43,114 bases of DNA from a virus. Location of the stretch: IMG/VR virus record IMGVR_UViG_3300045988_047887, one strand, 5' to 3'. The position numbers were made by a program, and so were the translations under genes. Position 1 is the first letter of the stretch, and each line of letters opens with the position of its first letter. This document shows, piece after piece, positions 2,955 through 41,037 of the stretch. A model generated the notes under the pieces. It worked only from the letters and a program-made list of their open reading frames with translations, had not been told where the DNA came from and searched no databases.

Positions 2955-3113
2955 GTTATAGGGCACACGCTGTTTCCGCATATCAAAACTTATCAATTTA
3001 TCAATAAAAAAACAATTAAATTTAATAACCTTACTAACTGGTATGAATTTTTGCGTGCGCCCTGCCCCTACCGCTGTAGGGAAATCATATAATTGTACAC
3101 TAAAATATGTAGT

Positions 3114-3455
3114 CTATATCAGTCGAGCCATGAGACTGTCGAGCCTGCTTTCCTCGAAGGCGTCCATCGGGTCTTGGTCTGCGTATTGGCTGTTCTCCTC
3201 CAGCCAATCGTCCATTACGTCTTGATAGTTAAGACAACCCTCGATGGCTTCCTCCAGCCGCTCGCTGTCGTTGTTGCTGGTCTTGTGCGTTACAACCGCG
3301 ATGTTGCCAACGCTGCCGCACCATACGCAGATGGCTCCTGCCTTGGTCTTGATGTCCACCCTTGCAACCGCTGGTCGCTGTGGGTCTCGGTCTATCTCCA
3401 GCCAGATGGCTTCGTACATTGCCTTCCTGCACTCCTCGATGATTCTTGGTCTCAT
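3114..3455 (-). CDS. hypothetical protein (113 aa)
   Basis: It has an ATGA start/stop overlap with the upstream gene. Confidence 0.6.
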   Translation of the reverse strand: MRPRIIEECRKAMYEAIWLEIDRDPQRPAVARVDIKTKAGAICVWCGSVGNIAVVTHKTSNNDSERLEEAIEGCLNYQDVMDDWLEENSQYADQDPMDAFEESRLDSLMARLI

Positions 3456-3694
3456 GCCTTATCTCTGTTTAAATAGTTGAAGAATGTCAGACGTGCATCT
3501 GCCAGCGTCTGCTTGTTGAACTCGCTCATCGGGAGTACCGGTATTCCGTCCAATGAAAGACAAAGCATGTTGTCGAACTCCCTTACCTGAATGCGTCTTT
3601 CCGCTTCCTTCATGGTTGCCAGTCGCTTGCTGTCCTTTCGCTCCTGCTCCCACTTGGCGGTCAGCTGCTTCGCTTTTACGTATGCCTTCATCAT
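3452..3694 (-). CDS. hypothetical protein (80 aa)
   Basis: The start was chosen at MMKAYV, which gives an ATGA overlap with the stop of the HTH gene. Confidence 0.55.
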   Translation of the reverse strand: MMKAYVKAKQLTAKWEQERKDSKRLATMKEAERRIQVREFDNMLCLSLDGIPVLPMSEFNKQTLADARLTFFNYLNRDKA

Positions 3695-13958: not shown

Positions 13959-14007
13959 AAAATTTTGAGTTAATTATGTCGTGGAAGCCAAATATTGGAA
14001 TCCGCTG

Positions 14008-14039
14008 CAAAGTTACTCTGATTTTTGGCTCGCTCCAAA
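14008..14039 (-). promoter_or_regulatory. Bacteroidota-type promoter
   Basis: On the minus strand, TTTG (14039-14036) is followed by 20 nt and then TAACTTTG (14015-14008). Confidence 0.55.
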
Positions 14040-14110
14040 AAGTTAGTACACTGGTATTTATCGAATTATTGTCAAAGAACGCTTTTGGTTATTTTCTTTT
14101 TATTTTTTGA

Positions 14111-14449
14111 TTAAACACAAATCGGCTCAACGTCCTTGTTAAGCAAGGTCGCTTGTGCCGTGGCAAGTCGATAAACTCGAGACGTGCTGAGATAAGTGTA
14201 AGCCATCTTACAAAGATGTCTCACTGCTGGAACGGTGCGGTTTAATACGGTCGCAGTGGTCGTTATGCTGAATCCTGCGTGTATCATCTGCTCAACGACC
14301 ATACATCGTGTCATTACGAGGTTTTCGGCTCTCGACTTGCCGAGAACGTCTTCTCTCGTAATGCTCAACTCTCCGTTCTGAAGTTCAATAGCACAACACT
14401 TGATTACGTTGTCTATAACTCGCCATAGTTCTTTCTCCTTGTCATTCAT
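14111..14449 (-). CDS. DnaA C-terminal-like HTH protein (possible regulator)
   Basis: VLGKSRAENLVMTRCMVVEQMIHAGFSITTTATVLNRTVPAVRH resembles the DnaA domain IV pattern. Confidence 0.4.
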   Translation of the reverse strand: MNDKEKELWRVIDNVIKCCAIELQNGELSITREDVLGKSRAENLVMTRCMVVEQMIHAGFSITTTATVLNRTVPAVRHLCKMAYTYLSTSRVYRLATAQATLLNKDVEPICV

Positions 14450-14506
14450 ATATAATTTATTAAAATTATTGTATATATTTATATATATTTTCAGACGAAA
14501 ATTGTA

Positions 14507-14809
14507 TTATTCTACCCCAAGCATAGAATCAATCATTCCGTCAATGGTTTCATCGGTCATGCTCTTCTTAATAGTAGGATCTGCGCCAATTGACTTCATC
14601 ATCATAGCTACATAGGGGTTGTTACTCTCCAGCGTGGAGTGTATCTGCTCCTTGTATGCTTCGTGAAGTTCGCCCGATTCCTTGAAATCCAAAAGAACCG
14701 TGCGCAAGGCTTTCACTGCGTAGTTATCCATCAGCAAGGGATTGTCCCTTGCCGATGAAAGTTTGGTAAGAAGCACTGCCAGTGCTTCATATAATTGTTT
14801 CTTCTTCAT
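14507..14809 (-). CDS. hypothetical protein (100 aa)
   Basis: Only the ORF itself supports this call. Confidence 0.55.
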   Translation of the reverse strand: MKKKQLYEALAVLLTKLSSARDNPLLMDNYAVKALRTVLLDFKESGELHEAYKEQIHSTLESNNPYVAMMMKSIGADPTIKKSMTDETIDGMIDSMLGVE

Positions 14810-14944
14810 ATTGTCTTATTTCTTAATTTACAAAGTCTCGTCTTGGAGTTTTACTCTCCATACTTTGGCTCCTCATACACCAAGTTATGCTCATCTACGT
14901 AAGCCTTGGCTTCTGAGTATGTGTCAAACTCTACTCGGTGGCTG

Positions 14945-15772
14945 TTAACTTTTTGCCCATGTAGAACCATTGAATGTTTTAGTAATATTACTAGTAGCAA
15001 CAATGGAATTGTCTGAGAATGTTGCCGTTATTGCATAACCATAATCGCCATGCGTTTGCCAGTCAAAAGCAAGATTGTGACCTGTAACTATGATGACTTT
15101 GCCAGACCTTCTTCTGTTTCTCCACATGTTTTCAAGCAGACTCTCCACTGAACCTGATATATCAGTGTAAGTCAAGTTCATTTTAGTTAAACCAATTTTG
15201 TCCCCAAGCAAAGATATATCACCTTTCACGGAAGTGGCTTTGATTAATACAAGTTCAGTTGCCTCAGGACTCAGGACTTTTGAAATATCCTCTGTTGTTG
15301 CATATATATTGGAATTGGTTATACCAAGATACAACAAACTATTATTATTTGCCAATTCAACAGAACCCGAAATATCACCAGAAATTAATAGGTACTTCAA
15401 GCCTTTACAATATTTCAAGTCGCTAAAGTCAATAATCTTGTTGCTATCATCACCTACACCATCATCAAAAGAAATCTTGGAAATATCCTGCTTCTTGCTC
15501 AACTTGATGATTGCACCATTTGACACATAGAGACGAGCATTAGTCACATCTGTACTAGTACCATTAGCGGTGGAAAAATCAGATGATGTAAAGTTTCCTT
15601 TCAAACACTCTACTTTAACTGGAGTGTTTTGGCTAACGGACTGAATAACGATACTGCTGTTTTTAGCTGTTTGCACATCAACAGGTTTAAACTGTATCAC
15701 CACAGAATCAAGATAATTTAAATTATCATTTTCTGTAGAACCACTGAGTTTTGTTACTAAACATTTTCCCAT
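14945..15772 (-). CDS. leucine-rich-repeat-like protein (receptor-binding accessory candidate)
   Basis: It has repeated L..L.L..T.ISGS-type units (LKYLLISGDISGSVEL, LTKMNLTYTDISGSVESL). The gene is AT-rich and lies next to the tail fibre. Confidence 0.55.
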   Translation of the reverse strand: MGKCLVTKLSGSTENDNLNYLDSVVIQFKPVDVQTAKNSSIVIQSVSQNTPVKVECLKGNFTSSDFSTANGTSTDVTNARLYVSNGAIIKLSKKQDISKISFDDGVGDDSNKIIDFSDLKYCKGLKYLLISGDISGSVELANNNSLLYLGITNSNIYATTEDISKVLSPEATELVLIKATSVKGDISLLGDKIGLTKMNLTYTDISGSVESLLENMWRNRRRSGKVIIVTGHNLAFDWQTHGDYGYAITATFSDNSIVATSNITKTFNGSTWAKS

Positions 15773-15789
15773 AATTTTTATTATTAATA

Positions 15790-18732
15790 TTAAACATTAT
15801 ATTCATACTTTGTGTCTAAGGAACTTATCTTATTGGTAAGCCAGTTTTCAACTCGTTTTTTGGAATTGTAAAAACCTAGGACTTTTGGCGCATTCGGGTA
15901 AATTCCTGTAAGAGGAGGTACACTTGTCATAACTTTTGTTGCCTTGAACGCATATTCTTGGTAGATACATATATCACCAATGGCATATTCCTTGTTTTCA
16001 GTGTATTCATCCGCTGTGATTCCTTGTGTAGAAGCATATCCCAAAGATTGCCATCCATCAGCTACTTTACTGCTACGATAGGAAGGAGTGTCATTGTATT
16101 TTTCAAACTCTTTCTTGTAGTTATCATACCCAATAGAATTAATCCACTTGTCTAGAAGACTACAGATATTGCTAACAGAAAATACATTCTTGTCTCTTAG
16201 CTCCCTATATCTTAATTTTATTTCATCAGCATACAGGCTATCCAAGTATAGTACATTCCAGTTTCCGAAGTTCTTGTCAGAACCAGGAACCACATAAGTT
16301 CCATTCCAATGAGCCCCAAAGATACTATCCACATCATACATTGTAGGAGTCCAGAGATTACCATCCCATGTACACCATATCCAATTCTTCCCGAAACCAT
16401 CAAGATTATATAGCACTTGACTTGTTAGCCAGTAGTCTATAAAAGGTCTAGGAATGAAGTACTTTTCAAAAGTTTCCTTTGTTTTACTTTTATTAAGTTC
16501 TGTGTATGCTTGCGAAAGTCTTGTTATATATCCTTTTACCTCCTTACTTAATATGTCGGTATTAGACAACTCTTTTGGATTATCACCATCATATTTGTTC
16601 TCATCAATATCTTTCAATGACTTTGGATTTCTCACCTCAAATGACGTCCATTGTGGAGTACCCTTGAATAAAGTTCCCCACATATCTCCATCAAGTATGA
16701 TATTCTTGGCTTTTTTCTTATCAGCAAAATACACCTCCTTGGATTTTTTTAAATTCCAAGTATAAACTCCCATCCAAGTCTCTTCGTTTGTCTTGGAGTT
16801 AACCCATGTGATAACAATCGGAAAGCCATCAGGATGGCACTTTGCCCCAGTGAAAAAATCTTTTTTTACATCACCCAAACTGTCTGTTGTGCTTTCATTG
16901 GAGTAACTATACTCGTAAGGGTATTGCTGACCAATAGGATGAGACTTGTAGACTTGCTCTATCAGCCAATAGCCTACAATACACTGACCACGGAAAGCAT
17001 CAATGTAGTACTTCTTTAAGTGGAAACTATCCTGCGTTGGAAAATCACCGAACTTAATCTCACCACCATCATTGATATCAATAGCCATGTTCTTGACATA
17101 GTAACCCATAGAAGATGAACCTTGTGCATTCAAGATTACTGGCTTGCGAAAATAGTTACCATCCTTGTCATTATACTCAATTTCTGCTTCAATATCATCC
17201 TGCTTTGTTGTAGGCAGCTTAGGAGCATAGAGTCTTACTTGTGCTGCAATACGAGGGATAGGCAATTCTATATGGCTATCCTTGCTGAAATCTGATGGAT
17301 TCTCCATCTTGATACCAGCAGACTTGAAGGCTTCATTAATCTCTTTGGCTGCTTCATCAGATAATTCAAGGTGTTTAGCGGAAATCTTGTGCTCATGACG
17401 AGTACCTTTAGAATCTCTGTAGCCAAGAATCTTATTTTCTGCATCTGTAGTAATCTCAGTTCTTCCTTCAGGGTCTTCAATATGAGAAAACTCTTCAGGG
17501 ATAGTCTCAGACTTTACCTTATAGAGATAATGGCTACCATCAGGAGCAATATATCCAATTACCTTACCCTCGGCATCTGTCTCAACAGAAAGATATTCAT
17601 CACTCTCTATTGTAGAAAGATGAGCTGTACGTTTTTTAATGTCTGCTATATCAATAATAGCATTGGCAATAAAGGTACTAATATCAATACCACCGACAAT
17701 CATGTGACCATCATTTGCACGGAAACCACAAAGAACCTTGTCTTCAGCATCAATGATAGCATAGAGCCATTCCTCATTGGTTACAACAGAGTACATTTCA
17801 TGGTTAGGGAAGTATGGATCCCCATCATACTTGATTCCTGCAAGGATTCTGTTTTCTGCATCTACTACTGCGATGATATACTCATCATTAGAGATATAGA
17901 AGAAGCTTCCAGCTACATCAAGGTTTACCAATCCCTTATCATCTTCTTTTGTCTGAAAAGTTTTAAGAACTTCCTTAATAGCCTTAATATCATCAAGCCA
18001 CTTAGCCTTTGCAGCCCAACAAGTACCATCTTGCTGAATACCAAGAAGAGGATGATTAGCTGCATCAAGAATTACCCAAAGGAACTCTTCGCTCTGTGAT
18101 ATGTGATACATATCATTTTGTGGATAGTAAGGCTTGCCAGTTGCTCTGTAAATACCAAAGAGAAGTCTATCCTCAGAATCTACAACAGCCATGATAAACT
18201 CCTCATTTTCGATTACTCTGAATGGAGTATCTTGAACATTTCCTTCCTCATCCTTGATAGTTGTCTTATCAAGGTTCTTTGCAACATTATCAAGATTAGC
18301 CAAGATGGAAGTAAGAGTCTCCGTATTCTCTATCTCAGCAAAGAACTTCTTCAACTCATTCATAGTGTCAATGACGTTTGTTGTGTCCTCGTCTCCCATG
18401 ATGGTTGCTACTCTCTCTGCAAGAAGAGTTACCTGTGACTGCAATCTATCCTCTACTGCACTTGTTTTGCCAAACTTAGGAGTACAATCCCACTGAATAC
18501 CGAAGAGAAGTCTATCTTCTGCGTCCACCTTGGCAAAGATGAACTCTTCATTCTGAATGTAGCGAAAAGGAGTATCTACTACCGTTCCTTCCTCGTCCTT
18601 GACGGAAACCTTGTCTGCAATCTCCACAAGTCCAGCGAGAGCACCGCCTACCCTCTCGGCTGTGTTCTCACCCACCTGCGTAGCGTTCTTAACCGCAGCC
18701 GCCTGTTGTTTAATTTCGTCTATTGTTGCCAT
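15790..18732 (-). CDS. tail fibre or receptor-binding protein with internal repeats and a CotH-like C-terminal domain
   Basis: It carries seven copies of a ..NEEF..A.VDAEDR.L.GI..DG.. unit. The C-terminal FIDYWLTSQVLYNLDGFGKNWIWCTWDGNLWTPTMYDVDSIFG matches the CotH pattern. Confidence 0.6.
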   Translation of the reverse strand: MATIDEIKQQAAAVKNATQVGENTAERVGGALAGLVEIADKVSVKDEEGTVVDTPFRYIQNEEFIFAKVDAEDRLLFGIQWDCTPKFGKTSAVEDRLQSQVTLLAERVATIMGDEDTTNVIDTMNELKKFFAEIENTETLTSILANLDNVAKNLDKTTIKDEEGNVQDTPFRVIENEEFIMAVVDSEDRLLFGIYRATGKPYYPQNDMYHISQSEEFLWVILDAANHPLLGIQQDGTCWAAKAKWLDDIKAIKEVLKTFQTKEDDKGLVNLDVAGSFFYISNDEYIIAVVDAENRILAGIKYDGDPYFPNHEMYSVVTNEEWLYAIIDAEDKVLCGFRANDGHMIVGGIDISTFIANAIIDIADIKKRTAHLSTIESDEYLSVETDAEGKVIGYIAPDGSHYLYKVKSETIPEEFSHIEDPEGRTEITTDAENKILGYRDSKGTRHEHKISAKHLELSDEAAKEINEAFKSAGIKMENPSDFSKDSHIELPIPRIAAQVRLYAPKLPTTKQDDIEAEIEYNDKDGNYFRKPVILNAQGSSSMGYYVKNMAIDINDGGEIKFGDFPTQDSFHLKKYYIDAFRGQCIVGYWLIEQVYKSHPIGQQYPYEYSYSNESTTDSLGDVKKDFFTGAKCHPDGFPIVITWVNSKTNEETWMGVYTWNLKKSKEVYFADKKKAKNIILDGDMWGTLFKGTPQWTSFEVRNPKSLKDIDENKYDGDNPKELSNTDILSKEVKGYITRLSQAYTELNKSKTKETFEKYFIPRPFIDYWLTSQVLYNLDGFGKNWIWCTWDGNLWTPTMYDVDSIFGAHWNGTYVVPGSDKNFGNWNVLYLDSLYADEIKLRYRELRDKNVFSVSNICSLLDKWINSIGYDNYKKEFEKYNDTPSYRSSKVADGWQSLGYASTQGITADEYTENKEYAIGDICIYQEYAFKATKVMTSVPPLTGIYPNAPKVLGFYNSKKRVENWLTNKISSLDTKYEYNV

Positions 18733-18735
18733 ATA

Positions 18736-19314
18736 TTAATCTCCTATTGCGTGAATGTGTGCCCTCGTCCCTCTCTGCTGTTTCACTTCCCCTTTAGGGG
18801 TGAATGCCTTGAGATATTCGAGTGCATCTGATAAATATCTTTCTGCCATATCCATGATGTCGTTGTATTGCTTGTTGCTCGATACGTCTTGAACGTGGTC
18901 TGAATAATCGTCTCTGTGGCGCATTCCACCTACTCGGCTTACAATTGTTCCATCGGCACGGAAAAGTCTCGCATACGTGAAATAAGCGAGTGCCTTGCGT
19001 ATTCCGCTGGTGTACTTCTGCACCTTGGTTTCGTCTTGGCTGCAATCTCCATCCTTTTTGGTGGTGTATTCGCCACCGTCCAGGAAGACCGCAGGCTGGA
19101 AATCGGGCAAGACTGAATCGTCCCACTCTCCCTGCTCGGTCGCTGCCTTGAACCGCTTCCACCCGATGGCTGGTATGATGTTCGCATCTTCGCATTCCCG
19201 AATGTATGCGTTCACTTCATCCTCATCTAGGTGCGTGCTGGTCGGTCTTGCCAGTTCTCGGAACTGATCAACCGTAATAAGTTGTTTTCTTTGTTCTCCC
19301 ATAGGCTCAATCAA
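18736..19314 (-). CDS. virion protein, head-tail adaptor candidate
   Basis: The call rests on position immediately after the portal gene. No firm motif was seen. Confidence 0.35.
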   Translation of the reverse strand: MIEPMGEQRKQLITVDQFRELARPTSTHLDEDEVNAYIRECEDANIIPAIGWKRFKAATEQGEWDDSVLPDFQPAVFLDGGEYTTKKDGDCSQDETKVQKYTSGIRKALAYFTYARLFRADGTIVSRVGGMRHRDDYSDHVQDVSSNKQYNDIMDMAERYLSDALEYLKAFTPKGEVKQQRGTRAHIHAIGD

Positions 19315-21660: not shown

Positions 21661-21700
21661 ATTCATAAGAACTTAATACTAATAAAAAGATTTGGAGCGA

Positions 21701-22768
21701 TTAGTAAGCTGCATGGATCATGTTCTCTTCGAGCAGAGCCGTGCCAATCTTACCAGTTGCGTAGATGTAATTTCTTCGTTCCTTCTGGTCGAAGAAGATG
21801 TCGAGGTCGCTGATGAGTGCGTCTGCGTCAGTACCAACCATAAGGTGCTTAGGATTGCAGAATACCGCACGGTGTGGAAGGTTGACTGTTGTCTCGCCCT
21901 TCTCGTATGCGTTAATCATTCTATCCCAAATGCCGACACGTGCAATCTTCACTCCGTTGTATGTCGCTACATCGAAGCCATCGAACACCTTCTCCCATGG
22001 CATGATGTCGTGGTAGGTCTGCTTGATGTCGTAGGTCAATGCGTCAGCGAGCGAGCGTGTCATGAGCAACACTGCATCGCTGTCGTCAATGATACGTGTG
22101 TCTACGTCCATCAAGATGGTGTCTACGGCTGTTGTAGCTGCACCCTTCTTGCGCAATGCTGAAACCTGCGCTGCTGCTGTGGCTTCGCTGTTGGCTGCGA
22201 TGGTGGTATGGTTCTTAGTCGCTGTGGCTGTAAAGATGCGCTTGAAGAGACCGTCACAGACGTTGAACATGTTAACGTCCGACCCTGCTGTCAGCTTGCC
22301 GCCACCTGAACCTGCCAATGCTGCCGCCTTGTCACCAAACCAGCCGAAACGCCAAATCATCTGCTGCATGGCTCGCTGGAGTGCATCGGTGTAGATGGTC
22401 ATAAAGTCGGTGCTGGTAAGGTCGCCAATGGCTGTACCGGTCTTCAAGGAGTACTCTCCGATTGACCCCTTCAATGCTTCGTAGCAAATCTTGATAGGGA
22501 TTTCCCACTGTCCGAGTTCCCAACGCTTCTGAGAGTTGGCGATACCCTTCTCTTCGTAGGTAGGGTCGCAACCGCCACCCTTCTTACCGACCATTTCCAT
22601 CTCACCGATAAGTGCGATAGGATCATCGTTCTTTACCTTCATAATGTTAACGAATGAAGAGAAGTCCTCATCCTTGAAGAAGGTCTCCTGAATGGCACTC
22701 TTGATGCTATCGAGGTTTTCTGGCTGGAGTGTCAAGTTCTCCAGCTGCTTTTTTGTAAATCCTGCCAT
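21701..22768 (-). CDS. major capsid protein (HK97-fold, putative)
   Basis: It is 355 aa, lies immediately after the protease/scaffold gene, and is followed by a stem-loop. Confidence 0.75.
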   Translation of the reverse strand: MAGFTKKQLENLTLQPENLDSIKSAIQETFFKDEDFSSFVNIMKVKNDDPIALIGEMEMVGKKGGGCDPTYEEKGIANSQKRWELGQWEIPIKICYEALKGSIGEYSLKTGTAIGDLTSTDFMTIYTDALQRAMQQMIWRFGWFGDKAAALAGSGGGKLTAGSDVNMFNVCDGLFKRIFTATATKNHTTIAANSEATAAAQVSALRKKGAATTAVDTILMDVDTRIIDDSDAVLLMTRSLADALTYDIKQTYHDIMPWEKVFDGFDVATYNGVKIARVGIWDRMINAYEKGETTVNLPHRAVFCNPKHLMVGTDADALISDLDIFFDQKERRNYIYATGKIGTALLEENMIHAAY

Positions 22769-32895: not shown

Positions 32896-34086
32896 TTATT
32901 GTCTCAATACGTGCGCCCTAGCCGTTCCGTGGCTCGCTACGGATAACTTCTTCAAGGCTACATATCGTATTGCGTCTATGCCGTGGTTGAATGCGTCTAT
33001 AGGCTGGTTCGTGGTCTCTCCATCCCTTGACTTCTTCCACTTGTATTGCTGCATGTTCTCGATGATGCCGTGGCTTCGTCTGGTTATGTTGATGCGGAAA
33101 CGCTTCAAGATGTCGATGCCGTTGTTGATACTGTCCTTGCCCTTGGTGCTTGGTATTATCCACAGCCCTTGGTTGTGTATCTCCTGAATGCTCTTAGGCT
33201 CTGCCGAATCCGCAATGATAAGGTCTCGTTTCGTCAGTTCTTGCTCCCTGCATCTGTCTGCGATGTCTTCGTTCGTCAGTCCAGGCTGGTAGATTTCCTC
33301 GTCCACCCAAAGCTCCCCATGCGCCAGTATAACGTGCTCCAGCGCAGTTGGGTCGTTGGTGAATCCGAAGTCCATACCCCTGCAATCCATCTTCCACTCT
33401 TCCCTTGGTGGCAGCTTGTCAACGATGCCCCAGTTGGTGAAGATAAGACCAGTTATCTTACCAGTCAGTCCTCTAGCGTAAACTCTCCACAATTCGGGGT
33501 CGTCAATCTCTTCAATTTTCTTGTGTTCCTGCTCAGTAAGGAATCGGTTGTTTCGGTGGTCGCTCAATATCAATCTGCAATCATCCCTGCCGATGATGTT
33601 GTTGTGCACCCAAAACCTTGCGCTTGGATTGTAATCTATGAATACCTGCTTTCGGGTTCGGATTGCAAGCTGCCAAAACACTTCGTAGGGCACACCGTTC
33701 GCTTCGTTGACGAACAGGTAGTCACGCTTTCCGTTCTTCGCATCCTGCGCATCTTGGTAACTCTTGAACTCGATGATTGAACCGTTCTTACCTCTGTAGC
33801 TGCTGTCGCTCTTGTTGTTCTTGAACCAGTCCAGCAGTTCTGCCCTTGTGTGCAGGATGGTGTCTAGGTCTCGCATGGCTCCCACCTTTAGGTTCGGAAG
33901 GTCTTGACCGCAGACCGTGATAATTGACATGGGGTGTTCAAAAGAAAGCACTATAAGACGCTGCATGATGGTGTATGTCTTCCCCGAGGACGTACCGCCT
34001 TGGTTAACTAGAAACCTTGGCTTTACGTCCGCATTCGGGTCATACAGTTCTCCAATAACGTCAAATAGTGCCATTCTTTCAAACAA
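32896..34086 (-). CDS. terL: terminase large subunit (PBSX/Terminase_3-like)
   Basis: It has Walker A (GGTSSGKT), Walker B-like (DYLFVNEA) and nuclease motifs (GMDFGFTNDP, DAFNHGIDAIRY). Confidence 0.9.
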   Translation of the reverse strand: MFERMALFDVIGELYDPNADVKPRFLVNQGGTSSGKTYTIMQRLIVLSFEHPMSIITVCGQDLPNLKVGAMRDLDTILHTRAELLDWFKNNKSDSSYRGKNGSIIEFKSYQDAQDAKNGKRDYLFVNEANGVPYEVFWQLAIRTRKQVFIDYNPSARFWVHNNIIGRDDCRLILSDHRNNRFLTEQEHKKIEEIDDPELWRVYARGLTGKITGLIFTNWGIVDKLPPREEWKMDCRGMDFGFTNDPTALEHVILAHGELWVDEEIYQPGLTNEDIADRCREQELTKRDLIIADSAEPKSIQEIHNQGLWIIPSTKGKDSINNGIDILKRFRINITRRSHGIIENMQQYKWKKSRDGETTNQPIDAFNHGIDAIRYVALKKLSVASHGTARAHVLRQ

Positions 34087-34114: not shown

Positions 34115-34720
34115 TTAATCTATATCCAATCCCTCACGCTCGATTACTTCCTGCTCGCTTGATGCGCACTGGTGTCCCGAGTTGATGTAGCGTACCTCGA
34201 TGCCGCCTTGGAAGCCTGCGTTCAAATCAAGTGCAACCTTATCCAGTCCGAGCAGCTTGCAAATCTGCGTCTCAGCCTTTAGGATGATGTCAAGATACCT
34301 TGGGTCTCCTAGTCCTCGCTTCTCAGCATCGTACATTATCGCCTTGACGGTATCCATCGTTACCAACCCAGTGTCTGGATCCTTGTTAGGCAGTCCGACT
34401 TGTGTCTGTGTCTTGCTGTTATAGTCCGCTTTGGATTTCTCCCATGCGTCCCAGGCTTCACGTATCACCAGCTTCAACCTTGAAACCTCGCTTGTTATCT
34501 TTTCGTCCGTGTCGGTCAGTCTCTCTTCCCTCCACTCCTTCAATAACCGCTGAATGTCGCAATGCGCTTGGTTGTATTTCGGTCTGTCGAGCCGCTTGCG
34601 AACTTCTGCCGTGATTTCTCGCTCCGTCCATCCCTTGCGGTATAAGGGTGCGATAATCTGCAAGCGGTTCTCGATGTCGATTTTCTGCGCTCGATGTTTG
34701 TTGTTATTACCTTGTGGCAT
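34115..34720 (-). CDS. terS: terminase small subunit (putative)
   Basis: It lies immediately upstream of terL. It has an HTH-like N-terminus and GDPRYLDIILKAETQICKLLGLD. Confidence 0.55.
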   Translation of the reverse strand: MPQGNNNKHRAQKIDIENRLQIIAPLYRKGWTEREITAEVRKRLDRPKYNQAHCDIQRLLKEWREERLTDTDEKITSEVSRLKLVIREAWDAWEKSKADYNSKTQTQVGLPNKDPDTGLVTMDTVKAIMYDAEKRGLGDPRYLDIILKAETQICKLLGLDKVALDLNAGFQGGIEVRYINSGHQCASSEQEVIEREGLDID

Positions 34721-34734
34721 ACGATTTTCTGATT

Positions 34735-35979
34735 TTAAAATTTCGCTCCATTGTACTTGTACACGATGTTCCCCTCGCTGTCTCGTTCGTCAGCTGGTAC
34801 CATTGCCCCTTCGAACATCTTGTATGGCGAGTGCGCTGCCTGCGGATTGTTCCAGCACCACTTCATATAGTCGGCTGCGCTCATCGTGTAATACTTCGAG
34901 TATTTCTCTCTTGTTCCCAGGTTCATCGCCTTCTCCAGTCTTGCCCTCAAAAGGTTCTCTGCATCCAGCTTGATGTCGCTCCACCTCACGTATCCCTTGC
35001 GCTTGCAAATGTTCAGTGCTTCGCACATCTGCCCCCTGCTGTAGTTCCATGTTGGTGGCAATCCGCAGCAACTTCCGTTGTGGCAAAGTTCCTTGAAGTG
35101 TGCGTCCGATACATAAAAGCGCATTCCCAGCTGGTCGCACAGTTCCTTCATATTCCTGAAGAACGGTTCTTTAACCTTGCGGTTCAGTCTCAGATAGCCG
35201 GACTGTACGCTGTACTTCTTGTAGAATGCGAGAATGTCGAAACCTGCCATCTTGCTGATGGTAGGCAACAATTCCCTCAATGTCGGGCTTCTCGTTTCCA
35301 GGCAGAAGAATTCGGTGCTCAAAGCTGTAGCCCCTCTGTTGAATGCCTCCTTGATAAGGTCGAGGTACGTTGGCGTGCTCACTCCGATGATGAAGGGTCT
35401 CAGTCTCAGCGTTGCCCCTCCAGCCCCTGAATTGGCGATGCGCTCGATGGCTTCCAGTCGTGCTTGTGGGCTTTCCACCCCTCGCTCTATTACTCTAGCC
35501 TTCTCTGCATCGCTGGTGATGATTGAGAACTTGAAGTTCCAGTTCTTCTGCCCTCTGATCAAGTCCATATATCGCTCATCCTTGGTGAACCACGCTCCCT
35601 TGGTCGAGAAGCAAAGCGGATAGTCTATATCCTTGAAGAAACGCAAAAGTTCCAGTGTCGTTCCGTACTTCCGTTCGAAGTTGTCGAACTGGTCGCTCAT
35701 ACTTCCCCACTGCATAACCTTGCGAGCCTTGATGTATGGCGCAAATTCTCCAGCGTGCTTGTCTGGGTCAATGAACATTCGCTTGATGCGCTCAACGCTC
35801 ACGTCCTTAACCTCCTTGTGCAGGTATTCCTTCTTCTTGCTGCCAATACCTCGCTGGTTCTGAGCAAAACAATACATACAGCCAAAGCTGCAATTATTGT
35901 AAGTATCAAAAGCCATCGGCATTGAGCAATCGGGGAACTCGTATGTTATTCTTGGCGTATTGCCATAATGTTCTGCCAT
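34735..35979 (-). CDS. radical SAM enzyme, SPL/COG1533-like
   Basis: It has a CX3CX2C cluster, CSFGCMYC, at aa 30-37. It is 414 aa. Confidence 0.7.
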   Translation of the reverse strand: MAEHYGNTPRITYEFPDCSMPMAFDTYNNCSFGCMYCFAQNQRGIGSKKKEYLHKEVKDVSVERIKRMFIDPDKHAGEFAPYIKARKVMQWGSMSDQFDNFERKYGTTLELLRFFKDIDYPLCFSTKGAWFTKDERYMDLIRGQKNWNFKFSIITSDAEKARVIERGVESPQARLEAIERIANSGAGGATLRLRPFIIGVSTPTYLDLIKEAFNRGATALSTEFFCLETRSPTLRELLPTISKMAGFDILAFYKKYSVQSGYLRLNRKVKEPFFRNMKELCDQLGMRFYVSDAHFKELCHNGSCCGLPPTWNYSRGQMCEALNICKRKGYVRWSDIKLDAENLLRARLEKAMNLGTREKYSKYYTMSAADYMKWCWNNPQAAHSPYKMFEGAMVPADERDSEGNIVYKYNGAKF

Positions 35980-35981
35980 GT

Positions 35982-36842
35982 TTACAAAAATTTTAATTTA
36001 CGATTCGATAGCGTCTTCCAGTTTTCCCTTCTCTCGACAAGCTTAACCTCGAAATGTCGCTTTCTTGCCGTGTTCCTCACGACACAATAAGGGAACATTG
36101 CCATAAGTCGCTTTCCGGATTCGATTACACGTTGTTCTGTCCTCTCTTCTTGCATTCCACCCTTCTCGCCATAGTAGTTACTGGTTACAGACACGAAATC
36201 AAGACGGACAACCGTCCCTCGCTTTAGGTACGCACGGACGCTTCTCTCGAAGTCCTCTTTATCGTCCATTGTTACATACGTTCTCCTATCGTGGCTTACT
36301 ACCATTCCCCACATTGAGCCGATGAGATAGCGCAACCCGAGACTGATTTGTCTTTTCATGTAGAACGTATTTCCTGCCGCATAAATCCCCCAGTAGTCAC
36401 TACCAACTTGCTTGCAAACAGAAAAGGCATAGTCGAAAAGTGAAGGGATGCTTTCTATCTCTTGCTTCTTCAAATCCCTTCCAATCTTCCATATCTCCTT
36501 CAAGTCATCGTCAAGACAAACAACCATCTGTCCATCTTGATAATAATCTTGAATAAAATTGCGAATATTCATCATTCCGACAACCCCGACAATGATTTTA
36601 TCAAACCAGCCGCCTGGGATTGTATCTTCATATTCCTTTCTCTGTTCTTCATTCGCAACGAATACGTCTATCCTGCTTGGGCTGATGCCTGCTTTATGTA
36701 GAAAACCGAGTGTCTTGTCTCGAAGGGTCGCTGCTCTCTTGTACGATGGTATCGCAACTCTCCAACACATATCGTTGTGGCTGCTTCGAGCGAAGTCCTC
36801 GAAGCTAACAACGGAATCTCCAATAACCAAACAATTCTCCAT
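35982..36842 (-). CDS. GT-A-like nucleotide-sugar transferase (tentative)
   Basis: VAIPSYKR near the N-terminus and a later VVCLDDDL (DXD-like) motif resemble the GT-A fold signature. This was not verified. Confidence 0.4.
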   Translation of the reverse strand: MENCLVIGDSVVSFEDFARSSHNDMCWRVAIPSYKRAATLRDKTLGFLHKAGISPSRIDVFVANEEQRKEYEDTIPGGWFDKIIVGVVGMMNIRNFIQDYYQDGQMVVCLDDDLKEIWKIGRDLKKQEIESIPSLFDYAFSVCKQVGSDYWGIYAAGNTFYMKRQISLGLRYLIGSMWGMVVSHDRRTYVTMDDKEDFERSVRAYLKRGTVVRLDFVSVTSNYYGEKGGMQEERTEQRVIESGKRLMAMFPYCVVRNTARKRHFEVKLVERRENWKTLSNRKLKFL

Positions 36843-36890
36843 AATAGTTATTTTTGTTAAATTTCACACGTGTAGGACTAAATGATGAAA

Positions 36891-36930
36891 GTGGCACAGT
36901 TGTTCGTTTCTGAATCGAACGAGCCACCAC
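36891..36930 (-). other. intergenic stem-loop between the ParB and GT genes
   Basis: A GTGGC/GCCAC outer stem encloses a GTTCG/CGAAC inner stem. Confidence 0.4.
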
Positions 36931-36934
36931 GGAC

Positions 36935-37570
36935 TTATTTTAGGCTTTTCCCTTCAACATCGTAGTTGCGCTTCTCGATTGCGTCAAGCCCCAGCATATC
37001 TGCCACGGCTTGTGCGTCCTCGCTGCGATATACGATGATGATGCGCTGCTCTTCGTCCTCTGCTGGCTCGTAGGTCGTGGCTTCCTGCTGGATTTCCCAG
37101 GGGTTCAATCCCCATCGCTGCATGTCGTCCACGTCAAACGCTCCCTTCAACTTCTCTTCGTCCCAGTTCCCGAAGTAGACGTTATCCTTGATAATGAACT
37201 CGTCCGTCTCTTCATCGGATAGGCTGTCAGCCATAACGACCTCGACATTTGGTTCTGCCTTCCACTTCTCCCAGTGGCTGCAAAGCTGCTGCTTCTCTCC
37301 ATCGGTCAGTTTCACGGCTACGGCTTCTATCGCTCCCTTGATTGCTTCGTCTTCCATCTGTTCGATGTTGAGCAGGGCACGGAAGCGCATATTACCTCCG
37401 AGAATAACTCGGTTCTCATTGCAGACGATTGGTCTCATCTGCAACATCTTCGGAAACGTCAGAATACTCTCAACGAGTTTCTGCATCTGCTGTGGCTCAA
37501 TGCTGCGTGGGTTGTCTTGGTTCTCCACCAGGTCGTGCAGGTTGATGTTCTCGATTCTATTCTTCTCCAT
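36935..37570 (-). CDS. ParB N-terminal domain protein (paralog 2)
   Basis: It contains NQDNPRSI...MRPIVCNENRVILGGNMRFRAL and shares IIKDNVYFGNWD with its neighbour. Confidence 0.7.
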   Translation of the reverse strand: MEKNRIENINLHDLVENQDNPRSIEPQQMQKLVESILTFPKMLQMRPIVCNENRVILGGNMRFRALLNIEQMEDEAIKGAIEAVAVKLTDGEKQQLCSHWEKWKAEPNVEVVMADSLSDEETDEFIIKDNVYFGNWDEEKLKGAFDVDDMQRWGLNPWEIQQEATTYEPAEDEEQRIIIVYRSEDAQAVADMLGLDAIEKRNYDVEGKSLK

Positions 37571-38336
37571 GGTCTTCCTCCTTTCCTTCTTTCTGTCTTG
37601 GTTTCAGTTCGTCAAAGTTCCATACGATGCGGTCTATATGATCAACTCCCAGCAACTTGGCAAGGAACGGCTCATCGGCTGGCTTGTAGTGAATGATTAC
37701 GTTCTCTCTTGGCAACACGCCATCGCCCATTATCGTTGGTAAATCGTCAGGAGTCAAGTCTTGACCGTCAATCTCGGGAGGTAGCTCCCCTGCGAATGGG
37801 TCGCCCTCTTGGCCGTCCTTGTCTTTCTTCTTGCACTTGCTGGTGCTGCTGCTGGTTTCCGCTGGTGCTGGGTTCCAGACTGGCATACCCCAGTTCTGAA
37901 GCTGTGCGCTGTCCCATCGGTTCGCAAGGTCGCTGAAGTCCCAGTTGCCGAATGATAGGTTATCTTTAATCATGAATTCCTGCTTTTGGGATTCCGTCAA
38001 GTCGGATGCGCTCACCACGGTAACTGTAGGCTGCTGCTGCCATCCCTGCCAGTACTCCATCAATGCGGCTTGTTCCTCATCGGATAGACGCTGTTCTGCA
38101 TCCAGCTTCATTTGAATGCTGTCTTCGTCCATCGTGACAATGTGCTGCAATGCTTTCAGTCTCATGTTGCCACCGAGTGCGTGGAAGGTCTCATCAACAA
38201 CAATCGGGCGCAGGGTCAACATTCGTGGGAACACGATGATGCTCTGCACCAGCTTCTGAAAGTTCGCTTGGCTTATCTCTCTTGGGTTCGCTTCGTTCTC
38301 GCTTACCCTCGAAAGTGCGATTTCTTCTGTTTTCAT
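37557..38336 (-). CDS. ParB N-terminal domain protein (paralog 1)
   Basis: It contains NEANPREI...LRPIVVDETFHALGGNMRLKAL and MIKDNLSFGNWD. Confidence 0.7.
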   Translation of the reverse strand: MKTEEIALSRVSENEANPREISQANFQKLVQSIIVFPRMLTLRPIVVDETFHALGGNMRLKALQHIVTMDEDSIQMKLDAEQRLSDEEQAALMEYWQGWQQQPTVTVVSASDLTESQKQEFMIKDNLSFGNWDFSDLANRWDSAQLQNWGMPVWNPAPAETSSSTSKCKKKDKDGQEGDPFAGELPPEIDGQDLTPDDLPTIMGDGVLPRENVIIHYKPADEPFLAKLLGVDHIDRIVWNFDELKPRQKEGKEEDHGEE

Positions 38337-38387: not shown

Positions 38388-38395
38388 CAAAGATA
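38388..38395 (-). promoter_or_regulatory. -7 box TATCTTTG upstream of the ParB-to-terminase operon
   Basis: The plus strand reads TGCGCAAAGATACGACTTTTTT, 52 nt upstream of the ATG. Confidence 0.5.
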
Positions 38396-38463: not shown

Positions 38464-38997
38464 TTATCCGTCAAAGGCTCTGATGGTCTTCTGCAGGGTT
38501 GTCTGCGGTTTTACCTTGACGGGGAATCCTGCACATACCCACGCGAGTAGAAGTGCGTCTCGCTGGTCTTGGTTCATTCTCGGCATCTTTCCGTCTTGGC
38601 TCATGAAGTAGCCAATTTCGTCTTGTGTTATCTTTCCGTCCTTGCCTTTCCAGCACTTCTTCAAAGGCTTTATTATCTCGTATGGGATATTGTAATGCTG
38701 GCAGCACTCAACGATTAAGATTCCGGTCTGATGGTTCATTCCGGTAGAGCGTCCGATTGCTGCTGCCTTGACTGCTGTCATGAATTTACTTAGCACGTGC
38801 CAGTTGCTTTTGTTGAGCCAGCCGCCTTCAATAACGACCTTGACCTTCTTGCAGCTTTCATTCATTGCCCTTATGTAGTCAATCAAAGCAGGGAAGTTCA
38901 TCTTGTAGGCGAGAAACTTCTTGTCGTCATATACTGCACCAACTCCGCTTTCTTGGTTGTCGGGGTCGATTCCGATTATAACTGTTCCTTTTTCCAT
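38464..38997 (-). CDS. RuvC-like Holliday junction resolvase
   Basis: It has IIGIDPD, VVIEGGW and DQRDALLLAW acidic motifs in RNase H-fold order. Confidence 0.6.
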   Translation of the reverse strand: MEKGTVIIGIDPDNQESGVGAVYDDKKFLAYKMNFPALIDYIRAMNESCKKVKVVIEGGWLNKSNWHVLSKFMTAVKAAAIGRSTGMNHQTGILIVECCQHYNIPYEIIKPLKKCWKGKDGKITQDEIGYFMSQDGKMPRMNQDQRDALLLAWVCAGFPVKVKPQTTLQKTIRAFDG

Positions 38998-39459: not shown

Positions 39460-39942
39460 TTAACTGTGATTCAGGGATTGCTCCTTCTTTTTCTTTACAC
39501 GTTCTGCAAGCCACATGAAATGTTCGGCTGCCTTCGGGTCTCTGAATATGGAAGCCTGCGTTTCCGGATTTATCCTATTCAGCTTCTTTCTTTCGGCTTT
39601 AAGCCTTCGCTGCTTCTTCTGCTTGTCGTTGTATTCCTTGATTTTGTCAGGGTTCTCCTTTCTCCATTTGCTGGCGTACTCCAGCATTCTCTGTCGGTGC
39701 TTGCAGTAGTACTCATGGTTGTAAAGAGCGGTCTTTGCCCTGCGCTTTTCTTGCTGCCTTTTTCCGTACATCTTGACCTTTTCAGGATTCGCCCTTCTGT
39801 ACTCTCGGTTCTTCCTCATCAACTCCTCACGGTGCAGCATGTAGTATCTATGTCTCCGCTCACGCTTTCGCTCTTCTACTTCCTTGTCAGTGAATAGCTT
39901 CTTTCTTCCCATTGCATTCCTTGATGTCTTGGTGTTCAACAT
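39460..39942 (-). CDS. highly basic protein with repeated Y..(A/E)NPEK(V/I)K motifs
   Basis: The motifs are REYRRANPEKVKMYGK and ASKWRKENPDKIKEYNDK. The start may be at 39912 (MGRKK). Confidence 0.55.
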   Translation of the reverse strand: MLNTKTSRNAMGRKKLFTDKEVEERKRERRHRYYMLHREELMRKNREYRRANPEKVKMYGKRQQEKRRAKTALYNHEYYCKHRQRMLEYASKWRKENPDKIKEYNDKQKKQRRLKAERKKLNRINPETQASIFRDPKAAEHFMWLAERVKKKKEQSLNHS

Positions 39943-40026: not shown

Positions 40027-41037
40027 CTAGAATGGAAGGTCTTCGAAGTCTTTGTCGGTGAAGGCTAGGCTCTCATTGCCCTCGTATGGGATGCAGCTGG
40101 TGAAGCTCGCTGGTTCTCCACTATGGATAGGCAAGGCGTTAACTCTCGCTTTAAAGTCCTCTCCTCTGAGACGGATGAAAAACGCAGGAAACCACTTGCA
40201 GCTATCTCCGCTCCTCACCAGCACCTTGTCGAAAGGCTTGAAGTCTGGCTGCGCCATCGCTTCCTTCTCTTTCTTCTCCCAAATGGAGTAATGCTTGTTG
40301 AACAGTTCGGCTTCGTTCTCTGTCGCTTCTCGCAGTTCATTGTGTGCGCTGATTCGCAGGTAGAAGGTTTCGTTGGCAATGAAATACTCGGTCTCAATTT
40401 CGTACTGCTTGCCGAATACCAGCTTGTCGTTGCTCTCGTCTTTGTCGATGAGCTTGCCGATGACTGTCACATCTCCATCCTCGTCTTCTTCGTTGAAAAC
40501 GTAAAGTTTGCCAATTTCAAACGCTGGCTTCTTCGGCTTCTCAATCTCCAGGGTTTCACGGTTCAGATTGCCATTGAGCCGCTCTTCAACGAATCGGATA
40601 TACTCTGCTGGATCATCGCTCTTGACCCAATCGGCTGTTCGGAAACTTGAAGCACGCTTGTAATACAAGCATTCTTTCTCCTTGACGTATCTTCCGAGAA
40701 AGCGTGTCTTCGTCTCATCCTCGAATTTCTCGAATGTGCAGGTTCCTTGTACTCCCTTGTCGCCTGCAAACTCCAGCACGTCTCCCTTCTTGAAGAACTT
40801 GCTCCAGTCTCTCATTTCCTTTGATGGGAAAAGCAGGACTTCTCCTCCCTTCATCCATCTGCCGTTCTTGTCGAAGGCGTACTCTCCGTTCTTGTCCTCA
40901 GTCCAAATTGCTTCCGCTTGCTCCTTGTCTGCTACAACAGAGGTGAACTCAACATTTCCACAAAGTGGGGTGTAAAGTGGAGTACCATCGGGCATGCCCT
41001 TTAAAAACTCATAAATATCAAAATCTTTCTGTTCCAT
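40027..41037 (-). CDS. hypothetical protein ending in an SSB-like acidic tip (..DFEDLPF)
   Basis: It is a 336-aa ORF, and the C-terminus was read directly. Confidence 0.65.
   Translation of the reverse strand: MEQKDFDIYEFLKGMPDGTPLYTPLCGNVEFTSVVADKEQAEAIWTEDKNGEYAFDKNGRWMKGGEVLLFPSKEMRDWSKFFKKGDVLEFAGDKGVQGTCTFEKFEDETKTRFLGRYVKEKECLYYKRASSFRTADWVKSDDPAEYIRFVEERLNGNLNRETLEIEKPKKPAFEIGKLYVFNEEDEDGDVTVIGKLIDKDESNDKLVFGKQYEIETEYFIANETFYLRISAHNELREATENEAELFNKHYSIWEKKEKEAMAQPDFKPFDKVLVRSGDSCKWFPAFFIRLRGEDFKARVNALPIHSGEPASFTSCIPYEGNESLAFTDKDFEDLPF

Follow-up and report, generated by a model that had tools for sequence, protein, structure and literature searches.

Introduction

To our knowledge, every route described so far by which 5-hydroxymethylpyrimidines arise in DNA relies on either O2-dependent TET/JBP dioxygenases or a pre-replicative, thymidylate-synthase-like hydroxymethylase combined with a dedicated polymerase. 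Here we analyse IMG/VR virus record IMGVR_UViG_3300045988_047887, a 43,114-nt stretch of DNA hereafter called the window, in which genes for two ParB-like proteins (ParB1 and ParB2), a glycosyltransferase (GT) and a radical S-adenosylmethionine (SAM) enzyme (rSAM) directly precede the terminase genes terS and terL. Temperate phages of strict gut anaerobes such as this one appear to possess neither of the known routes, yet carry the whole downstream toolkit for tailoring 5-hydroxymethyluracil (5hmU). The ParB-ParB-GT-rSAM block is very likely a DNA hypermodification cassette, and we consider it probable that it operates post-replicatively on thymidine, with the ParB-assisted rSAM making 5hmU without O2 and the GT glycosylating it to a base-J-like product.

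The closest described systems are phage pathways built around thymidine dioxygenases. The genes of these enzymes lie near those of GTs, P-loop kinases, amino acid:DNA transferases (AADTs), GATases and terminases, in most cases with no C5-methyltransferase, and one clade of the enzymes is inactive without a co-encoded ParB that has no DNA-binding domain (PMC13229309). In published surveys, 94% of the 5mYOX pathways are devoid of a C5-methyltransferase and are inferred to act on T. The ParB-dependent clade E 5mYOX (PNAS 2026, PMC13229309; bioRxiv 10.1101/2025.08.14.668559) resembles the window in its co-encoded ParB without DNA-binding domain, which likewise consists of a nucleotide-binding and a C-terminal domain and has the same best match in the Protein Data Bank (PDB), MxParB 7BNK. 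Window-type loci also share its GT, P-loop kinase, AADT and GATase neighbours, the frequent adjacency to terminase genes, the lack of a C5-methyltransferase and, as we propose, the post-replicative mode of action. The clade E oxidase, however, is a Tet_JBP/2-oxoglutarate (2OG)-Fe(II) dioxygenase, instead of which the window has a 414-aa rSAM, and the window further differs in its strictly anaerobic hosts and its two ParB paralogues. Whereas the original prediction, made from the window sequence, saw no match to any known pathway, the architecture corresponds to the TET/JBP-like thymidine dioxygenase pathways that depend on ParB (PMC13229309), except that rSAM replaces the dioxygenase.

Three further systems are instructive. 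In kinetoplastids, base J arises through the thymidine hydroxylases JBP1/2 and the glucosyltransferase JGT along the route that we propose for the phage, from T via 5hmU to glycosyl-5hmU in DNA, although the hydroxylase depends on O2 and 2OG, no ParB is involved and the context is eukaryotic. Gp53 of Pseudomonas phage M6 is an rSAM N-alpha-glycinylthymine isomerase (PMC8989533) and thus, like the proposed window enzyme, an rSAM acting on a thymine C5 substituent within polymeric DNA; its gene clusters with those of a 5-hydroxymethyldeoxyuridine (5-hmdU) DNA kinase and an AADT, while its annotation reads 'DNA repair photolyase', as does that of homologues of the window rSAM. M6 differs in that 5hmdU is introduced pre-replicatively, via a dUMP hydroxymethylase and the phage's own polymerase, while the window contains no AADT, kinase, PLP enzyme or ThyA-like gene. 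Finally, the Escherichia coli rSAM YhcC replaces the flavin adenine dinucleotide (FAD) oxidase MnmC anaerobically (PMC13228596), i.e. an rSAM substitutes for an O2-linked oxidase on a uridine C5 side chain, albeit in tRNA and through a different reaction; the likeness drawn here is one of role.

A constant ParB-rSAM core with an exchangeable tailoring slot

Our census of related loci comprises 189 rSAM loci, corresponding to 41 rSAM clusters at 90% identity. In about 172 of these loci ParB is found directly upstream of rSAM, and the intervening genes vary. Within about 80 near-identical phages the frame RuvC-ParB-ParB-slot-rSAM-terS-terL is constant and rSAM is 97-99% identical. In most members of this Segatella copri lineage the slot contains a 176-aa P-loop kinase; others have a HAD-APH fusion together with a cytidylyltransferase and a 266-aa TET-associated glycosyltransferase (TAGT), the latter 28% identical to the window GT. 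The 286-aa GT of the window and of one further locus (L071) represents the third type. Breakpoints in blastn comparisons with slot variants A and B fall at window positions 36951/2 and 35979-35993, at the edges of the slot, which indicates precise exchange of the GT gene plus spacer. Because rSAM stays 97-99% identical across the slot variants, its substrate is presumably common to all of them and its step upstream of tailoring. The recurrence of the four genes, proposed earlier as a check, is therefore partial: the ParB and rSAM core is kept, whereas the four are not conserved as a set, the GT being swappable.

Across the census, kinase-only cassettes are the most numerous (64 loci), ahead of AADT-kinase-GNAT (34 loci, 17 rSAM clusters), HAD-APH-cytidylyltransferase-GT (about 28 loci) and AADT-kinase (16 loci, 5 rSAM clusters); GATase-AADT-kinase-GNAT and GT-only cassettes are found in five loci each. 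Nine loci from three rSAM clusters (L136, L138, L153 and L166 among them) are GNAT-only, with the order ParB-GNAT-rSAM and no kinase, AADT or GT; here the rSAM product may be acetylated directly, or partners may be encoded elsewhere. Judged from family assignments, the slot genes come from the known 5hmU-tailoring toolkit. The profile of the slot kinase family matches the validated 5-hmdU DNA kinase gp54 of M6 (hhalign 97%, E 8e-11), and 12 of the 16 members of a 224-aa AADT-like family match PF18724 (Pfam ADDT, amino acid:DNA transferase; best 6.5e-13), although hhalign finds no match between this family and M6 gp51 (probability 1.5%). HAD-APH and cytidylyltransferase form a heptose-activating pair that is experimentally required for phage DNA heptosylation (bioRxiv 10.1101/2023.12.21.572611). 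The tailoring partners, namely kinase, GT, probably O-methyltransferase, and GNAT, all need a hydroxyl acceptor.

Gene fusions tie the rSAM family to DNA nucleobase-modifying enzymes as its neighbourhoods do. Among 20 long rSAM-family representatives, eight are TAGT-rSAM or rSAM-TAGT fusions, including one Ploopntkinase3-rSAM-TAGT triple fusion, and one is fused to an FkbM-type methyltransferase. In a Victivallis prophage (L110), an rSAM 60% identical to that of the window is joined to a PF18748 5-hmdU DNA kinase (HMUDK) domain (6e-13), and a 519-aa homologue (P0112, 69% identity) also has GNAT acetyltransferase domains, consistent with an rSAM-GNAT fusion. With a TAGT-type GT, ParB/Srx domains and rSAM neighbourhoods and fusions that involve DNA-base enzymes, the DNA-modification role first suggested for the block is well supported.

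Several individual loci depart from the common pattern. A phage SAM synthetase (PF00438/PF02773) adjoins the cassette in 23 loci (including L183:4195-5232) plus L195:3919-4941, which fits heavy, stoichiometric use of SAM. A near-identical phage (L073, 6879-7001 against window 35979-38296) has lost the ParBs and the slot gene, so that rSAM directly follows RuvC; this variant may be in decay or may work independently of ParB. In the human-gut phage contig MT836763.1 (L001, 6800-8821 against window 34721-38336), terL/terS DNA is 90% identical, similarity stops exactly at the terS start, and upstream of terS a 168-aa open reading frame (ORF) and an N6/N4 DNA methyltransferase (PF01555; C-terminal part of phrog_498) take the place of ParB-ParB-GT-rSAM, which suggests that the position before terS is a general DNA-modification slot. 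A 65-kb phage (L082:2577-3362) encodes a DUF4417 protein, then a 180-aa ORF and then a single ParB; the DUF4417 protein corresponds to the C-terminal part of phrog_940 'nuclease', a family of ParB + DUF4417 fusions. Upstream of ParB-kinase-rSAM, locus L185 (4903-5760) has a second, smaller rSAM (285 aa, CQHNCAYC) that is closer to M6 gp53 than the window-type enzyme is (tblastn 7.6e-7), so that two distinct DNA-associated rSAM types occur in one cassette.

The glycosyltransferase

The 286-aa protein is a TAGT/JGT-like GT-A glycosyltransferase, in line with the GT-A-like reading given before. It matches PF20691 (TAGT) with E 3.9e-9 and 37.2 bits, above the gathering threshold of 27.5, as well as phrog_25200 (1.6e-37) and phrog_842. 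Its AlphaFold (AF2) model is of high quality (pLDDT 95, pTM 0.92), and all 122 significant Foldseek matches in the PDB (E<=1e-3) are GT-A glycosyltransferases. R36, D111-D113 and K195-E196-D197 are invariant over 40 homologues and F198 is present; R36, D111-D113 and E196-D197-F198 fit the active-site motif set R...DDD...EDY/F of the JGT-like phage DNA glycosyltransferases, a GT-A family that resembles Trypanosoma cruzi JGT in structure and motifs (bioRxiv 10.1101/2023.12.21.572611). The predicted activity is thus sugar transfer onto 5hmU or 5-hydroxymethylcytosine (5hmC) in DNA.

The TAGT family is named after its association with TET, but neither the window nor the 2.76 Mb of related loci contain a Tet_JBP. 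In its place, rSAM adjoins or is fused to TAGT-family GTs, and GT homologues of other phages (42-62% identity; L195, L197, L201 and L202) also lie beside rSAM homologues, while a giant-virus contig pairs its GT homologue with Tet_JBP. The closest homologues from cultured phages are those of Arthrobacter and Mycobacterium phages (31-35% identity, E to 4e-34), among them the GT of Arthrobacter phage Altadena (35%), which adjoins a Tet-like JBP. The Arthrobacter phages Altadena and Lilmac1015 have the order hypothetical protein-ParB-'Tet-like J-binding protein'-GT-deacetylase, and the Acadian-type mycobacteriophages Acadian and PRodriguez the order ParB-weak Tet_JBP-GT-deacetylase-Ploopntkinase3-TerL. 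Both kinds of cassette share with the window the homologous GT, the upstream ParB gene and the layout, with Tet_JBP standing where the window has rSAM; they differ in this Tet_JBP-like oxidase, in an extra 'glucosaminyl deacetylase' and in their aerobic hosts.

Some annotations in these comparison genomes are likely wrong. In PRodriguez (L114), the 'DpdA-like tRNA-guanine transglycosylase' at 813-1691 has a weak Tet_JBP match (1.4e-4) and the 'adenylate kinase' at 3022-3588 is Ploopntkinase3 (3e-61). In M6 (L111), the validated kinase gp54 (21686-22249) is annotated as 'terminase small subunit', which probably explains the same label on phrog_800.

The radical SAM enzyme

Assignment of the 414-aa protein to the radical SAM enzymes, already made from the sequence, is upheld by its CX3CX2C motif (C30/C34/C37, invariant in the family alignment), by PF04055 (E 5e-7, 30.5 bits, just above the threshold of 29.5) and by Foldseek. 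Further cysteines are invariant or near-invariant (18, 123, 226, 299, 304, 305 and 319), and those at 299, 304, 305 and 319 lie in a conserved C-terminal domain, where they are candidates for binding an auxiliary cluster.

The chemistry of spore photoproduct lyase (SPL) runs via an allylic thymine methyl radical in DNA. The window enzyme was at first described as SPL/COG1533-type, and it shares the CX3CX2C core with this group and matches its PA0069 (NF033668: 6e-15, 55 bits, cut-off 360) and Rv2578c (NF038135: 1.7e-10, 40 bits, cut-off 430) families below threshold. Kinship with SPL itself is unconfirmed: the structural model (pLDDT 74, with a disordered cluster loop and an unreliable stretch of 58 N-terminal residues) retrieves generic rSAM folds, and the cysteine-rich C-terminal domain and the gene context set the protein apart. 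As the family scores are far below their cut-offs and the fold matches generic, 'SPL-type' is a weak label.

The family is large: the 90% database contains 2218 relatives, and the 50% library 161 representatives at E<=1e-30. Among 50,697 deposited phage genome records, searched at both the nucleotide and the protein level, there is no cultured phage that encodes rSAM. Sequence searches of the PDB, whether with rSAM (alone or as a profile) or with M6 gp53, returned no informative match. Three homologues (P0245, P0252 and P0258) are split by inteins or LAGLIDADG homing endonucleases, as is the large terminase of L201.

The ParB pair

That ParB1 and ParB2 are paralogues, as noted from the start, is borne out by 42% identity over 154 aa (E 2e-42), and ParB2 is kept beside ParB1 throughout the S. 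copri phage lineage. Single sequences have no match to Pfam ParB_N; the pair matches PHROG ParB-like families at 1e-14 to 4.5e-19 (ParB1 1e-14 to 3e-18). When a profile of 20 family members is searched against the PDB, ParB/Noc/Srx structures are the top nine matches (4e-4 to 3e-2), with MxParB 7BNK as the best and Spo0J 6SDK, HpParB, Noc and sulfiredoxin also at the top. The matches to 7BNK, 6SDK and Noc are confined to the N-terminal domain, and NPR and GGNMR align to the canonical QPR and GERR, respectively. The proteins had been regarded as consisting of the ParB N-domain only. This domain, a ParB/Srx nucleotide-binding domain, is indeed present, but it is followed by an acidic disordered linker and a conserved C-terminal domain of about 40 aa. 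The family alignment reveals no helix-turn-helix DNA-binding domain in the window ParBs.

The linker of ParB1, but not that of ParB2, bears a conserved LPPEIxGQDLTPDDLP motif. In the form LPPE(L/I)QGxDLxPxDLPKIxG (window 37740-37800, ParB1 aa ~183-200), it is strongly conserved from Bacteroidales to Victivallales phages, and it may be a docking peptide for rSAM or another partner. A role in plasmid partition was considered and rejected for the ParBs, because they have neither ParA nor a DNA-binding domain and are always coupled to rSAM.

Hosts and other sources of 5hmU

The window is a temperate Segatella copri phage (prophage). Its rSAM is found with 99% identity and the same flanks in the complete chromosome of S. 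copri HDE04 (NZ_CP152346.1), where the prophage lies at about 1.93-1.95 Mb and is of the kinase type, and in other S. copri genomes. Further genes of the window code for an integrase, a YqaJ/RecE-like exonuclease, replication initiators and an endolysin. Metagenome-assembled genomes (MAGs) with rSAM homologues (60-71%) are assigned to Duncaniella, Prevotella, Phocaeicola, Paludibacteraceae, Azobacteroides, Tidjanibacter, Victivallales and a Clostridia bin. With few exceptions, the hosts assigned are thus strict anaerobes of the gut or rumen. The Tet_JBP partners, by contrast, belong to phages of aerobes and to giant viruses.

The non-structural ORFs of the window contain no Tet_JBP, thymidylate-synthase homologue, DNA methyltransferase (including C5-methylase) or DNA polymerase. 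The missing methyltransferase and ThyA-like gene agree with the earlier statement that methyltransferase, hmdU synthase and kinase are all lacking. Tblastn searches with two TET-like proteins, the dUMP hydroxymethylase of M6 and the PLP enzyme of M6 gave no match in the window and 197 loci (2.76 Mb). As polymerase, dNMP kinase and ThyA-like gene are all missing from the phage, a pre-replicative pathway was rejected.

Proposed mechanism and alternatives

The constant pairing of ParB and rSAM, tailoring enzymes that need a hydroxyl, the lack of another detected 5hmU source and the anoxic hosts together make conversion of T to 5hmU by rSAM the most economical explanation. We lean towards regarding rSAM as the O2-independent equivalent of TET/JBP, i.e. 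a functional stand-in for the TET/JBP-type 5-methylpyrimidine dioxygenase of aerobes' phages. On a narrow balance, we also favour it as the founder of a family that hydroxylates the C5-methyl group of thymine (or 5-methylcytosine, 5mC) in double-stranded DNA without O2, assisted by ParB and with oxygen derived from water. Neither the pairing of an rSAM with TAGT or ParB nor thymine hydroxylation without O2 is described in the literature searched.

Gene identities, architecture, fusions, slot exchange, host range and the absence of other 5hmU sources from the regions searched are shown by the data above, whereas we infer what rSAM does chemically, which base is its target, how the ParBs take part, which sugar is added, the anti-restriction function and the timing with packaging, as follows. 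The ParB-like proteins, probably nucleotide (CTP)-dependent clamps without a DNA-binding domain of their own, would recruit or activate rSAM on phage DNA. Reductive cleavage of SAM would then yield a 5'-deoxyadenosyl radical, which abstracts hydrogen from the thymine C5-methyl group. One-electron oxidation of the resulting thyminyl radical, possibly via an auxiliary cluster on the C-terminal cysteines, and subsequent hydration would give 5hmU. The TAGT/JGT-like GT-A enzyme would glycosylate the new hydroxyl to base-J-like glycosyl-5hmU, which would shield the DNA from host nucleases while it is readied for packaging.

Several observations weigh against this mechanism. In the literature searched, there is no report of an rSAM that hydroxylates a DNA methyl group. 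Over the rSAM core, the window enzyme is only 19% identical to M6 gp53 (hhalign probability 15%), and SPL is outside the best 50 PDB matches of the moderate-quality rSAM model. The window ParBs give no BLASTP match to the TET-associated ParB of Altadena, and their hhalign scores with TET-associated ParBs are marginal (Altadena 58%, PRodriguez 31%). For the kinase-only and GNAT-only cassettes the end product is not obvious. Since about 8 kb of flank was examined for most related loci, a distant source of 5hmU is possible in most of them. One locus (L095) belongs to a MAG that carries the label Staphylococcus; this genus is not strictly anaerobic, and the MAG may have been mis-binned. Moreover, rSAM could act on 5mC made by the host instead of on T.

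Two alternatives deserve consideration. First, rSAM may itself be a downstream tailoring enzyme that receives 5hmU from another, unrecognised source, either as an M6 gp53-like isomerase that converts N-alpha-glycinylthymine to the C-alpha form or as an anaerobic counterpart of PaMx11 gp47, a FAD lyase that turns N-alpha-glycinylthymine into 5-aminomethyl-dU. The most diverse architecture, ParB-AADT-kinase-GNAT-rSAM, indeed has the same gene set as PaMx11 except that rSAM substitutes for the FAD enzyme, and gp53, with its thymine C5 substituent in DNA and the shared 'DNA repair photolyase' annotation, as well as YhcC (PMC13228596), provide precedents. We nevertheless consider this unlikely: the window and many other loci combine rSAM with a GT or a kinase alone, without an AADT to supply the substrate; two-domain TAGT-rSAM fusions exist; virtually the same rSAM (97-99% identical) stands beside chemically different tailoring enzymes; L185 encodes a small gp53-like rSAM alongside, and separate from, the window-type one; and neither the non-structural ORFs of the window nor tblastn of the 2.76 Mb yielded an alternative source of 5hmU.

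Second, rSAM may create a different acceptor or modification on DNA, which GT, kinase or GNAT then decorate, such as a hydroxyl at another position or base, 5hmC from host-installed 5mC, or a SAM-derived adduct. The chemistry assigned to rSAM rests on inference, TAGT-type GTs are active on 5hmC as well (bioRxiv 10.1101/2023.12.21.572611), S. copri may methylate cytosines, and the GNAT-only and kinase-only cassettes hint at chemistry outside the known schemes. The kinase and AADT partners, however, belong to families defined on 5-hmdU in DNA, no C5-methyltransferase is found among the non-structural ORFs of the phage, and the 94% of published 5mYOX pathways without such an enzyme are inferred to act on T, so we see little likelihood for this alternative, too.

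That no DNA base is modified, with rSAM and GT acting on a nucleotide, small molecule, RNA or protein (e.g. a viperin-like anti-defence product or virion glycosylation) or rSAM being an SPL-like repair lyase, is highly improbable: the naming of homologues as 'DNA repair photolyase' by JGI and nr, a weak viperin-family match (E 0.034) and the generic fold stand against an rSAM that is obligatorily linked to ParB, TAGT, 5-hmdU DNA kinase and AADT and fused to TAGT and kinase, UV spore photoproducts are irrelevant in dark, anoxic gut hosts, and a repair enzyme would have no need of swappable tailoring partners.

Implications

If ParB-assisted thymine hydroxylation by rSAM is correct, it represents new enzymology, namely O2-independent oxidation of a DNA methyl group, and an anaerobic, non-homologous counterpart of TET/JBP that supplies 5hmU for base-J-like and amino-acid hypermodifications in gut phages. 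It would account for the synthesis of hypermodified DNA in anoxic ecosystems, and abundant human-gut prophages (Segatella/Prevotella, Bacteroidales) would package glycosylated, phosphorylated or amino-acid-bearing thymines, with consequences for restriction, phage therapy and nanopore- or restriction-based analysis of the gut virome. The enzymes would also be a new class for epigenetic-sequencing chemistry. The precise swapping of modules inside one phage lineage points to a modification arms race in progress.

Locus organization and further observations

The features of the locus are collected in Table 1. ParB1, ParB2, GT and rSAM are co-oriented just before terS/terL, with an overlap of 14 nt between the ParB genes, a spacer of 92 nt between ParB2 and GT, and gaps of 2 nt between GT and rSAM and 14 nt between rSAM and terS. 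ORF coordinates, strand, overlap and gaps reproduce the four-gene layout of the original prediction, and its motifs IPSYKR, LDDDL and CSFGCMYC are all found in the translations.

Table 1 Features of the ParB-ParB-GT-rSAM locus (positions refer to the window).
Feature	Position	Strand	Length and basis
ParB1	37557..38336	-	259 aa; PHROG ParB-like families, family profile
ParB2	36935..37570	-	211 aa; ParB1 paralogue, phrog_620 4.5e-19
TAGT/JGT-like GT-A glycosyltransferase (putative DNA GT)	35982..36842	-	286 aa; PF20691, AF2/Foldseek
Radical SAM enzyme	34735..35979	-	414 aa; PF04055 5e-7, CX3CX2C
Swappable tailoring-enzyme slot	35980..36951	.	GT gene + 92-nt spacer + final 17 nt of ParB2; blastn breakpoints
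Candidate Bacteroidota -7 promoter box TATCTTTG	38388..38395	-	TAnnTTTG, upstream of ParB1
Putative small terminase subunit (terS)	34115..34720	-	Position and conservation directly downstream of rSAM
Large terminase subunit (terL)	32896..34086	-	Terminase_3C 4e-21, Terminase_3 5e-12
RuvC-like Holliday junction resolvase	38464..38997	-	phrog_1770 2e-16; upstream of ParB1, conserved in 125 loci

The TAnnTTTG promoter box proposed for the block is present as TATCTTTG, 52 nt before the ParB1 ATG and inside a 127-nt intergenic region. The motif is not enriched, with 27 occurrences in the window against 25 expected by chance, and TATCTTTG therefore carries no statistical weight; its position alone supports it and is suggestive of a promoter box of ParB1. 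Scans for generic promoters and terminators do not rise above chance, and no clear terminator is seen between ParB1 and terL. The sole family match of the putative terS is phrog_645, annotated 'Rnase E' (3.8e-14), and its label derives from the position beside terL.

Upstream of RuvC, two minus-strand ORFs without Pfam or PHROG match are conserved in the S. copri phage lineage, one of 336 aa (40027-41037) and a Lys/Arg-rich one of 160 aa (39460-39942). Within the structural module, the region 14000-18800 has a GC content of 0.35-0.40, compared to ~0.49 elsewhere, and includes a 980-aa ORF (15790-18732, minus strand); this stretch could have been exchanged and encode a tail fibre or receptor-binding function.

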